Source of the DNA: Steroidobacteraceae bacterium
GTDB taxonomy: Bacteria; Pseudomonadota; Gammaproteobacteria; Steroidobacterales; Steroidobacteraceae
Assembly (NCBI GenBank): GCA_035554635.1
Contig: DATMIB010000067.1
Location: 282-64,281, forward strand
DNA length: 64,000 bases
Reading direction: 5' to 3'
Part shown: piece by piece, positions 51,961 to 53,804 of the stretch
Layout of the letters: the number at the start of each line of letters is the position of its first letter
Position numbering within the stretch: position 1 is the first letter of the stretch
Notes under the pieces: generated by a model
What the model saw: only the letters and a program-made list of their open reading frames with translations
Databases searched by the model: none
Told to the model about the DNA's origin: nothing
Position numbers and translations under genes: made by a program

Positions 51961-52064
51961 GTGGCTAGAGTTTAGAGTTCAGAGTCTAGTCGGAGCGCTG
52001 CGCGGCGGCCGCCGAGGGGCGGCCTCCGAATCCGACTAGACTCTAACCACTAGACTCTAGCCAC
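51961..52064. repeat. heptad-palindrome element copy C (rpsJ/rplC spacer)
   Basis: Left arm GTGGCTA GAGTTTA GAGTTCA GAGTCTA GTCGGA. GC-rich centre gcgctgcgcggcggccgccgaggggcggcctccgaa. Right arm TCCGAC TAGACTC TAACCAC TAGACTC TAGCCAC. The arms are largely reverse-complementary. Confidence 0.85.
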
Positions 52065-52073
52065 TTCCTATGG

Positions 52074-52385
52074 TCAGTTCAGCTTGATCTGGACGTCCAC
52101 GCCGGCCGGCAGTTCGAGCTTCATCAGCGCGTCCACCGTCTTGTCGGTCGGGTTCAGGATGTCCATCAGGCGCTTGTGCGTGCGCATCTCGTACTGGTCG
52201 CGCGCGTCCTTGTCGGCGTGCGGCGAGATCAGCACCGTGAAGCGCTCCATCTTGACCGGCAGCGGCACCGGGCCGCGCACCGTGGCGCCCGTGCGCTTGG
52301 CCGTCTCGACGATCTCGCGGGCCGAGTTGTCGATGAGCCGGTGGTCGAACGCCTTGAGGCGGATGCGGATGTTCTGGCGAGCCAT
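52074..52385 (-). CDS. rpsJ: 30S ribosomal protein S10
   Basis: [34 protein letters not shown].. Confidence 0.98.
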
Positions 52386-52397
52386 TGTTGAATCCTA

Positions 52398-52486
52398 GCG
52401 GTTAGTGGTCAGTGGCCGGTGGTCAGTGGGAGAGGAGCGCGCGGTGCGCGCTCACTAACCACTGACCACTAACCACTAACCACTTG
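52398..52486. repeat. heptad-palindrome element copy B (tuf/rpsJ spacer)
   Basis: GCGGTTA GTGGTCA GTGGCCG GTGGTCA GTGGGAG; central perfect hairpin gagcgcgc-ggt-gcgcgctc; then ACTAACC ACTGACC ACTAACC ACTAACC ACTTG. GGTCAGTGG/CCACTGACC pair perfectly and the outer heptads pair with a few mismatches. Confidence 0.88.
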
Positions 52487-52495
52487 ATTGATTGC

Positions 52496-53686
52496 TTACT
52501 TGAGGATCTTCGCGACGACGCCGGCGCCGACGGTGCGGCCGCCCTCGCGGATGGCGAAGCGCAGGCCTTCCTCCATCGCGATCGGCACGATCAGCTCGAT
52601 CGTCATCTTGATGTTGTCGCCCGGCATCACCATCTCGACGCCTTCCGGCAACTCCACCGACCCCGTCACGTCCGTCGTGCGGAAGTAGAACTGCGGACGA
52701 TAGCCCTTGAAGAACGGCGTGTGACGGCCGCCCTCTTCCTTCGTCAGCACGTACACCTCGCCCTCGAACTTCGTGTGCGGCTTGATCGAGCCCGGCTTGC
52801 ACAGCACCTGGCCGCGCTCGACGTCCTCACGCTTGGTGCCGCGCAGCAGCACGCCCACGTTGTCGCCCGCCTGACCCTGGTCGAGCAGCTTGCGGAACAT
52901 CTCGACACCCGTGCAGATCGTCTTCTGGGTCTCTTTCAGACCCACGATCTCCACTTCGTCGTTCACCTTGACGATGCCGCGCTCGATGCGCCCGGTCACC
53001 ACCGTGCCACGACCCGAGATCGAGAACACGTCTTCCACCGGCATCAGGAACGCGCCGTCCACCGCGCGCTCCGGCACCGGGATGTACTTGTCCATCTCCT
53101 CGACCAGCTGCACCACCGCCGGCACGCCGATCGGGCTGGTGTCGCCTTCGAGCGCCTTCAGCGCCGAACCCTTCACGATCGGGGTCACGTCGCCCGGGAA
53201 CTCGTACTTCGAGAGGAGTTCACGCACCTCCATCTCGACCAGCTCCAAGAGCTCCGCGTCGTCGACCATGTCGGCCTTGTTCAGGAACACCACGATGTAC
53301 GGCACGCCCACCTGGCGCGCCAGCAGGATGTGCTCGCGCGTCTGCGGCATCGGGCCGTCGGCCGCCGACACCACCAGGATCGCACCGTCCATCTGCGCCG
53401 CGCCCGTGATCATGTTCTTCACGTAGTCGGCGTGCCCCGGGCAGTCGACGTGCGCGTAGTGGCGGTTCGTCGACTGGTACTCCACGTGCGCCGTCGAGAT
53501 CGTGATGCCGCGCGCCTTCTCTTCCGGCGCCTTGTCGATCTGGTCGTACGCCATGAAGCTGCCGCCGTGCGTCTCGGCCATGACCTTCGTCAACGCCGCC
53601 GTCAGCGTCGTCTTGCCATGGTCAACGTGACCAATCGTGCCCACGTTCACGTGCGGCTTCGTGCGTGCGAATTTTTCCTTAGCCAC
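52496..53686 (-). CDS. tuf: elongation factor Tu
   Basis: (V)[32 protein letters not shown]..; 396 aa; GTG start at 53686. Confidence 0.99.
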
Positions 53687-53707
53687 GACCCAATACCTCT
53701 AGAACAA

Positions 53708-53804
53708 GTGACTAGTGACCAGTGGTTAGTGGTTAGCGCACAGCGGCAGCGAGAACCCCGGCGTCCGGTTCTTCACTAGCCACTGACCACTAGCCACTAA
53801 CCAC
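53708..53804. repeat. heptad-palindrome element copy A (tRNA-Thr/tuf spacer)
   Basis: GTGACTA GTGACCA GTGGTTA GTGGTTA; GC-rich centre containing gagaacc..ggttct; then CACTAGC CACTGAC CACTAGC CACTAAC CAC. Confidence 0.88.

Follow-up and report, generated by a model that had tools for sequence, protein, structure and literature searches.

The subject of this analysis is a set of three palindromic elements, here called E1, E2, and E3, in a 64,000-nucleotide stretch of contig DATMIB010000067.1 from an uncultured soil bacterium (the whole stretch is referred to as the window, and coordinates are given within it). The elements lie in the spacers between a tRNA-Thr gene, tuf, rpsJ, and rplC, where an earlier note had described them from the letters alone, and we located all three of them there in the window sequence. 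Each is 89-104 nt long and consists of four to five heptads of the AGTGGYY type in one arm, a GC-rich centre, and inverted heptads in the other arm. All genes around them (tRNA-Tyr, tRNA-Gly, tRNA-Thr, tuf, rpsJ, and rplC) are encoded on the minus strand, and a consensus scan found a promoter-like site (TTGACA-17-GAGAAT, 54213-54185) ahead of tRNA-Tyr; the unit therefore runs in the order tRNA-Tyr, tRNA-Gly, tRNA-Thr, E3, tuf, E2, rpsJ, E1. The features of the locus are as follows:

E1, 51956..52069, minus strand (element proper 51961-52064): heptad palindrome immediately 3′ of the rpsJ stop codon
E2, 52396..52486, minus strand (element proper 52398-52486): heptad palindrome occupying the tuf-rpsJ spacer
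E3, 53705..53806, minus strand (element proper 53708-53804): heptad palindrome between tRNA-Thr and tuf
Half copy, 38604..38630, minus strand: a single array of three to four heptads, with the transcript-sense sequence AGUGACUAGUGGCCAGUGGCUAGUCGG
tuf, 52496-53686, and rpsJ, 52074-52385, both minus strand: the cistrons flanking E2, identified from open reading frames, Pfam labels of orthologues, and translation
rplC, 51033-51731, minus strand: identified from its open reading frame and the Pfam label of orthologues
tRNA-Tyr, tRNA-Gly, tRNA-Thr, and the promoter-like site, 53815..54213, minus strand: start of the transcription unit that holds E3, E2, and E1

Tandem Repeats Finder (TRF) reported a period of 7 (or 14) in every arm, with 2.3-4.6 copies. 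The arms of E1 hold five heptads each, of the AGTGGCT/AGAGTCT type (its TRF period of 14 nt equals two heptads), around a centre that is a GC-rich double mini-hairpin, and in the transcript its 3′ end reads GCCAC followed by UUUCUUGUU, i.e., seven U in nine nucleotides. The centre of E2 reads GAGCGCGC-ACC-GCGCGCUC, and its 3′ arm ends 14 nt upstream of the rpsJ ATG, with the rpsJ Shine-Dalgarno sequence AGGA located at the 3′ foot of the stem. Between the 3′ end of tRNA-Thr and the start of E3 lie ~9 nt, and between the end of E3 and the GTG start codon of tuf 24 nt. Both downstream elements had been said to fill most of their spacers, which holds for E2 between tuf and rpsJ but not for E1: The spacer between rpsJ and rplC has 340 nt, of which E1 takes up only 104, and a conserved promoter and a leader make up the rest. 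The half copy begins 9 nt past the stop codon of a gene at 38640-39653, and the next gene downstream lies at 38035-38589; from the gene order, we infer that these two genes sit in the rpoA and rplQ positions, respectively.

The repeat pattern GTGGYYAGTGGYYA, searched with up to two mismatches, matched the window 19 times against 2.5 matches expected, and 0 of 100 shuffles reached 19. These matches are confined to E1-E3 and the half copy, the sole outlier being a weak two-mismatch match in coding sequence at 55252, in agreement with the earlier note, which had seen no further copy except the half copy. The inverted-repeat arms of the three elements are 39-44 nt long and 77-87% complementary (39 nt and 87% for I1, the inverted repeat of E1). 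Folded as RNA in the transcribed sense, E1 reached -78.9 kcal/mol (z -9.5), E2 -69.1 kcal/mol (z -12.2), and E3 -58.7 kcal/mol (z -6.0). The predicted stems comprise 38-48 bp including the centres, so that the arms do pair into long imperfect stems, as had been proposed, but longer ones than the 30-35 bp then estimated. Similarly, the elements had been called AT-richer than their surroundings, which is correct for the arms (47-53% G+C versus 69% in the window) but not for the centres (71-86%) or for the left arm of E2 on the plus strand (67%). At the Rfam gathering thresholds, only three tRNAs matched in the region, and, for the elements, relaxing the threshold to E ≤ 1 yielded just sub-threshold look-alikes of eukaryotic miRNA precursors, i.e., generic long hairpins.

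Assembled metatranscriptome contigs, mapped at 97% identity, run across the elements (metatranscriptome and metagenome contigs mapped to the whole region at 90% were uninformative, given the conservation of tuf in many taxa and assemblies that break at the heptads). A contig that is identical to the window, with no mismatch, spans 53664-53853 from tuf through E3 into tRNA-Thr, and a contig across 52350-52508 runs from rpsJ through E2 into tuf. For E1, RNA contigs in the runs X10 and X25 extend from rpsJ into the rplC leader through the allele of the related contig L001; they carry just this non-window allele, and none covers the window's own. Taken at face value, these RNA contigs show that all three elements are transcribed, and the view that they are long stem-loops within a highly expressed polycistronic unit is borne out to the extent that RNA contigs traverse E3, E2, and an allele of E1.

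Variation among relatives and the 3′ end of E1

The best named relatives of the host, judged by its L3 protein, are Steroidobacteraceae genome bins (82-87% identity), which have the usual gene order rpoBC-rpsL-rpsG-fusA-tuf-rpsJ-rplC. Among the relatives compared, ten contigs encode an S10 protein identical to that of the window. Heptad hairpins are present in the tuf-rpsJ and rpsJ-rplC spacers in all of these ten but L007, with heptads that differ from those of the window (GCGGTCA, GTGTCCA, and GTGACTG), and the orthologous elements fold at -52 to -78 kcal/mol with 38-48 pairs each. E1 and E2 are 58-76% identical to their counterparts in relatives whose flanks are 94-100% identical. In the comparison with L001, rpsJ and E2 are each 100% identical, the rplC leader 99.6%, and rplC 99.3%, but E1 only 68.6%; in the comparison with L002, the flanks are 96-99% identical, E2 68%, and E1 62%. 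E2 has the same sequence in L001, is remodelled in L002, L004, and L008, and is absent in L007, where the tuf-rpsJ spacer is 5 nt long, and in L236, which has no hairpin in either spacer. More distant relatives have shorter hairpins of other 7-nt units, such as GCCCACA. The centre of E1 (GGCCGGC..GCCGGCC, GCGC..GCGC) is retained in relatives, while the arms differ.

The same variation was found within soil samples. In the runs X1, X10, X25, and X13, the E1 region (window 51961-52073) occurred in at least three alleles with otherwise identical flanks, and two of them, the window allele and the L001 allele, co-occurred in one soil DNA run. From these comparisons, the elements are long-standing residents of these spacers, and their arms turn over far faster than adjacent non-coding sequence yet stay complementary. 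They are also dispensable, since some relatives are without them. Exact-protein look-ups with EF-Tu (first residue V or M) and with the 184-aa protein whose gene follows the half copy gave no match, and the comparison therefore covers E1 and E2, not E3 or the half copy. A scan of metagenome contigs with the conserved pattern of the rplC promoter and leader returned one match and no additional relatives.

A separate observation concerns tuf itself. In the window, it lies between the three tRNA genes (tRNA-Tyr, tRNA-Gly, and tRNA-Thr) and rpsJ; in related bins (L236, L237, and L239), the order is fusA-tuf-rpsJ. Compared with L001, the final 800 nt of tuf show an identity of only 92%, next to an E2 and an rpsJ with 100%. 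These differences suggest a rearrangement or a conversion between two tuf copies. The contigs of relatives also break within tuf.

Downstream of E1, the rplC side of the spacer contains two further features:

rplC operon promoter, 51926..51953, minus strand: TTGCAT at 51948-51953, a 16-nt spacer, and TATAAT at 51926-51931, read from the sequence
rplC leader, 51732..51925, minus strand, ~190 nt: conserved and structured, outside the repeat family, setting the 3′ boundary of E1

The -35 hexamer of this promoter overlaps the U-rich tail of E1 (51952-51960). The promoter is conserved as TTGCAW-N16/17-TAYAAT in all relatives examined, distant ones included, and was missed by the consensus scan because TTGCAT fits just three of the six positions of TTGACA. 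The leader, with the landmarks CUCGCCGAGGCCUGGCCGG...CCGGUACCGCUCGAGCGGCG..., is kept in L001-L009 and L236-L239, and its identity to L002 is still 96%, while E1 is 62-69% identical in L001 and L002. It had no Rfam match at E ≤ 1, and it may be the autoregulatory leader of an S10-type operon, shifted behind rpsJ in this lineage. In the relative L007, a plain GC hairpin followed by T7 (U7 in the RNA) forms a terminator in the place of E1. The 3′ end of E1 has the make-up of an intrinsic terminator, a GC-closed stem followed by a U-rich tract, and this tail, the overlap with the promoter, and the L007 terminator together put E1 at the terminator position of the tuf-rpsJ transcript. The terminator consensus scanner, which considers loops of 3-8 nt only, did not list E1, whose stem is far longer than that of a usual terminator.

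The wider class of heptad palindromes

Arrays of the same kind occur far outside this lineage. When viral contigs were scanned for 3.5 heptads of the form AGTGRYY, at least 104 stretches came back, and a scan of genomes for 3.5 copies of AGTGGYY returned at least 120; the genome matches listed include Acidobacteriota, Planctomycetota, Chloroflexota, Verrucomicrobiota, Cyanobacteria, Bacteroidota, Proteobacteria, Firmicutes, and Actinomycetota, with a few isolates among them. Some phage contigs contain up to 29 matches in 10 kb, and nearly all intergenic spacers in these are made of a forward and an inverted array on either side of a short unique loop (that these are phages, and on which strands their genes lie, is confirmed by Pfam matches to portal, Mu F, and tail proteins). 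In four contigs from IMG/VR (L020, L036, L052, and L073), the palindromes run from the stop codon to 2-10 nt before the next ATG, which often leaves no space for a Shine-Dalgarno sequence. The arms in L036 are built from two different units, CAGTGGT and ACTGATT, with G-T pairing only on the strand antisense to the genes.

Across the retrieved loci, TRF found 1218 period-7 arrays, far above every other period, with units that have a CAGT/ACTG core and variable remaining positions. About 90% of the arrays are intergenic, compared to ~82% of the DNA being coding (the latter by a crude gene caller). Neighbouring arrays of opposite orientation follow a single polarity, 5′-(CAGTNNN)n..(NNNACTG)n-3′, in 133 cases versus 0 reversed, and an independent test gave 72 versus 0. 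Among the palindromes with two called flanking genes, 97 lie between co-directional, 5 between convergent, and 3 between divergent genes, which is roughly the background of spacer types. On the sense strand, CAGT-type arrays start a median of 3-4 nt past the upstream stop codon, and ACTG-type arrays end a median of 14-16 nt ahead of the downstream start codon; by symmetry, this placement is the same fact as the polarity, and the half copy of the window matches it, as a CAGT-type array after a stop codon. The units are also rich in stop codons, counted on both strands (216 observed versus 87 expected from letter-shuffled units). Genes downstream of arrays did not differ from other genes in missing a Shine-Dalgarno sequence, as scored with a loose motif and crude start calls.

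The conserved 4-nt core amid variable positions, the head-to-head order that never changes, and the strict 7-nt period could be read as an array of binding sites for a sequence-specific DNA or RNA protein. The omega repressor, a ribbon-helix-helix protein, reads 7-bp repeats in this manner. Moreover, paired heptads in Geobacter, 5x MTYCTGA, were annotated as putative global-regulator sites (PMC2700814), and MacGregor proposed an S1-, Csp-, or CsrA-type RNA binder for the TAACTGA repeats (PMC4679880). We nonetheless consider binding sites a very improbable basis for E1-E3: No candidate protein was identified, the spread over many phyla and phages would demand a near-universal factor, and the variable positions differ freely among loci and even between the two arms of one palindrome. 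The heptad was also considered as a Chi-like, DnaA-box-like, or attC-like sequence and as a primase site, and these readings were dropped, as nothing testable spoke in their support.

One genome bin bears on whether such palindromes move as units. In a Brevundimonas sp. bin, two loci (L215 3858-4050 and L230 165-350) have the ends AAGTGGCTAG...CTAGCCACTT, as in the window, and share a subterminal segment of ~45 nt, GCGGAAGGGCGGCGC...GTCGC..GCCAGCC. This pair hints at a copying of whole elements in some genomes, and dispersal as whole units may occur there. Together with the several window copies that end in AAGTGG...CCACTT and the very high copy number in phage contigs, it could be taken to favour a mobile family, akin to miniature inverted-repeat transposable elements (MITEs), whose terminal inverted repeats would be the heptad arrays. 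At E1-E3, however, no target-site duplication flanks the elements (the bases beside the arms merely lengthen the stem), and there is no conserved internal sequence: The centres of E1, E2, and E3 are unrelated, as are the loops of the phage copies, which are all different. The centre and right junction of E1 are moreover inherited across relatives, with only the arms changing, and no transposase turned up nearby, although no systematic search for one was made. A MITE-like origin, which the earlier note had held out as its alternative, is thus highly improbable for the window elements, while other genomes may test differently.

The distribution of the class also bears on the idea that the elements are tied to translation genes. 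Ribosomal-protein or rpoC clusters account for 4 of the 120 sampled genome loci, among the matches listed. The class does recur in such clusters: A heptad array in an acidobacterial Pyrinomonadaceae bin (L171 4718-4742) stands directly upstream of rpsJ, and a full palindrome in a Chloroflexia bin (L173 6281-6352) lies between rplF and rplR homologues, which shows that they arose independently in ribosomal-protein operons of unrelated phyla. The same palindromes are found in many phyla and phages, in any co-directional spacer, and the special tie to translation genes that had been suspected therefore did not hold up; beyond transcribed, co-directional spacers, we see no sign of one in these data. 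This matters for the proposal that E1-E3 are putative RNase III processing or stabiliser sites, dedicated to and evolved for translation operons. Their 38-48 predicted pairs do exceed the at least ~20 bp of near-continuous double strand of an RNase III substrate, all four window copies fall within the tRNA-tuf-ribosomal-protein cluster, and translation genes are over-represented beside the TAACTGA repeats of Beggiatoaceae (PMC4679880). Yet the class occurs in operons of all kinds and in phages, relatives manage without the elements, and there is no covariation specific to the transcribed strand. We therefore regard dedicated RNase III sites as quite unlikely.

Proposed origin and use of the elements

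The explanation that we prefer, and hold as one package with middling confidence, is that E1-E3 are heptad hairpins like the STRR sequences of cyanobacteria (the letters stand for short tandemly repeated repetitive), that they evolve by slippage and arm copying, that they persist for reasons given below, and that they are probably used as intercistronic or terminator stem-loops. Each element pairs two opposed arrays of a heptanucleotide simple-sequence repeat, with the unit YAGTGGY and the core CAGT/TAGT, which enclose a local GC-rich hairpin. The elements belong to a class of intergenic period-7 repeats that is spread very widely over taxa and covers the cyanobacterial STRR type and the TAACTGA type. 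They have the traits of a heptanucleotide simple-sequence repeat hairpin of STRR-like kind: 7-nt tandem units, an intergenic position in an operon with inverted arrays, and fast variation at orthologous sites. Their arms would lengthen, shorten, and homogenise via replication slippage, and one arm would be copied onto the other via template switching in the quasi-palindrome, such that complementarity is kept while the sequence turns over. Template switching between the arms of quasi-palindromes is established mutational biology. The arrays may persist in spacers since a 7-nt unit cannot be coding and most units hold a stop codon, and since the palindrome would fold out of the transcript and bring two gene ends together.

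The stem-loops are then tolerated, and are probably put to use as intercistronic or terminator hairpins, in different ways at the three positions. E1 is probably a leaky terminator or attenuator ahead of the rplC promoter. E3 would provide a 5′ cap-like stem on the tuf mRNA once the tRNA has been excised. E2 may act as a hairpin at the tuf/rpsJ boundary, i.e., as an exonuclease barrier of the REP (repetitive extragenic palindromic) or STRR type or as a putative processing site, and its foot holds the ribosome-binding site of rpsJ.

Several observations weigh against this package. RNA contigs read through E1, which makes it at best a leaky terminator, and the contigs themselves are assembled from metatranscriptomes, which may contain DNA and show no RNA ends. 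A hairpin that is selected as mRNA should show its mismatches as G-U pairs on the sense strand, and the check for compensatory changes in the transcribed sense that had been called for, run on G-U pairs, gave no such sign of RNA-level selection: In the window, the sense strand of E2 and E3 folds better by 8 to 12 kcal/mol, but the orthologues are mixed, and among 105 palindromes between co-directional genes the antisense strand gave the better fold in 66 versus 38 (p = 0.009). With no sense-strand G-U signature, nothing favours the mRNA over the DNA palindrome as the unit of selection. Slippage and arm conversion also leave the CAGT core and the absolute polarity unaccounted for. Finally, all four window elements lie in a 16-kb translation cluster (p ~0.004 under a uniform distribution), a figure that refers to the 64-kb window only and may or may not hold genome-wide.

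Most of the probability that the package leaves goes to pure neutrality, in which the elements are functionless by-products: Slippage would act in untranslated but transcribed spacers, and harmless palindromes would survive, with no role in termination, stability, or translation. We judge this doubtful, if a serious contender. The hypervariable arms, the presence or absence of elements among close relatives, the equal complementarity of both strands, and the broad, non-specific contexts all agree with it. On the other hand, E1 sits exactly at the relatives' terminator position with a conserved U-rich tail, the hairpins persist in the same three spacers across the clade despite 30-40% sequence turnover, and the strict polarity, conserved core, and close abutment to stop and start codons point to constraint; neutrality, too, leaves the CAGT core and the polarity unaccounted for.

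Because core and polarity are unaccounted for, there is room for a coupling or insulating device or for a specific binding factor. It is conceivable, if unlikely, that CAGT-core palindromes are intercistronic elements of one pan-bacterial, phage-borne type whose unit is designed. With seven nucleotides and a stop codon in every unit, three units would suffice to close all reading frames of both strands. The polarity would set the G-rich arm directly behind the stop codon of the upstream gene and the C-rich arm directly ahead of the start codon of the downstream gene. Stop and start would be brought side by side by the stem, whose foot a terminating ribosome would melt before passing on to the next cistron, so that translation would be coupled or insulated through structure. 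Another option is that a conserved factor, yet to be found, reads the arrays.

The annotation of the locus changes: The tRNA-tuf-rpsJ-rplC spacers hold hypervariable heptad hairpins of a class that extends from cyanobacteria to phages, rather than a lineage-specific regulatory invention. The class is abundant and has had no experimental characterisation to date, and its arm polarity, CAGT core, stop/start abutment, stop-codon enrichment, and strain-level remodelling with pairing kept all lend themselves to testable hypotheses. The elements also disrupt assemblies and give rise to alleles at strain level within the most conserved operons, which matters for metagenome binning and for the use of these loci as markers.

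Comparison with known repeat systems

The heptad design had not been recognised as a described repeat type, but it is not new to the literature, as 7-bp STRR hairpins (PMC2670836) and ACTG-core heptamer arrays (PMC4679880) are known. A literature search for literal heptad dimers returned nothing relevant, and within our limited search, the palindromic form outside cyanobacteria, the density in phages, the absolute polarity, and the stop-codon content were not described.

REP sequences are 20-40 nt long, have a GTAG or CGTC head, and are linked to RAYT (REP-associated tyrosine) transposases (PMC3733652, PMC2817692). Like the window elements, REP sequences and bacterial interspersed mosaic elements (BIMEs) of enterobacteria and pseudomonads are transcribed palindromes that come soon after stop codons in co-directional or convergent spacers and vary between strains, and they act as 3′ stabilisers or attenuators. 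The window elements differ in their length of 89-104 nt, their AAGTGG start with no GTAG or CGTC head, and their tandem construction, and they match no Rfam family; they are, as the earlier note had recognised, not REP, BIME, or enterobacterial repetitive intergenic consensus (ERIC) sequences. REP/BIME families run to hundreds of copies in a genome; the 64-kb window holds 3.5 copies of the heptad elements. The window also has a REP/BIME-like cluster of its own, with no relation to the heptad family, at 32298-32428 in the spacer after a gene that ends at 32292. There, a 53-nt unit that includes the GC-rich palindrome ACCTCTCCCGCGAGCGGGAGAGGT is present in 2.5 tandem copies. At 33105-33365, TRF found dense overlapping GC-rich tandem repeats with periods of 6, 9, 12, 21, and 39, which are probably a low-complexity coding stretch.

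Heptameric intergenic repeats as such are over-represented, for which slippage was put forward as a hypothesis (Mrazek 2007, as cited in PMC4692102 and PMC4679880). The GGGAATC repeats of Xanthomonas lie between the same genes in two species; their length and their sequence vary, and some of them are inverted pairs (Rehm et al., PMC4692102). They share with the window elements the period of 7 and the conservation between genes with variation, but their unit forms G-quadruplexes, the palindrome is not the rule, and no polarity rule was described. In Geobacter metallireducens, paired tandem heptads (MTYCTGA x5) were reported as multicopy, putative global-regulator sites (Aklujkar et al., PMC2700814). 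These resemble E1-E3 in having five tandem heptads with a CTGA core, mostly in opposite-strand pairs and of unknown function, and differ in being annotated as regulator sites, with a hairpin or operon-spacer context not stated.

Marine Beggiatoaceae, together with some cyanobacteria and Bacteroidetes, have arrays of the heptamer TAACTGA a few nucleotides ahead of start codons (MacGregor 2015, PMC4679880). Ribosomal-protein operons contain such arrays too, upstream of L3, S4, and fusA. The arrays have a patchy phyletic spread and unknown function, are AT-rich, and are nearly always direct, with two to six units; one case in 170 is inverted (PMC4679880). The ACTG core, the sense orientation, and the position before the start codon (14 nt for the 3′ arm of E2, with a class median of 14 nt) are alike. 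The window elements are nevertheless not TAACTGA repeats, as their unit is different and their arrays are inverted pairs with long stems.

In the strict sense that Mazel reportedly gave to STRR sequences in 1990, their host is a heterocystous cyanobacterium and their units are CCCCAGT, TTGGTCA, and CAACAGT. Two of these three classical units, CCCCAGT and CAACAGT, share the CAGT core. In that sense, E1-E3 are not STRR sequences: Their host is a 69% G+C soil bacterium near Steroidobacteraceae and not a cyanobacterium, their unit is GTGGYYA, their centre is GC-rich and not a repeat, and their context is tRNA-tuf-rpsJ-rplC. Window-type heptad arrays were, however, also found in Stigonema, Scytonema, Chamaesiphon, and Cyanomargarita genome bins. 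Between hupS and hupL of several filamentous cyanobacteria, STRR 7-bp repeats form hairpins of unknown function (Devine et al., PMC2670836), whose proposed roles lie in translational coupling, in pausing or termination, and in the stability of the transcript (PMC2670836). These hairpins are built, as E1-E3 are, from tandem 7-bp units in operon spacers that fold between cistrons. By their sequence, E1-E3 fit a loosely defined, experimentally uncharacterised kind of intergenic heptad repeat.

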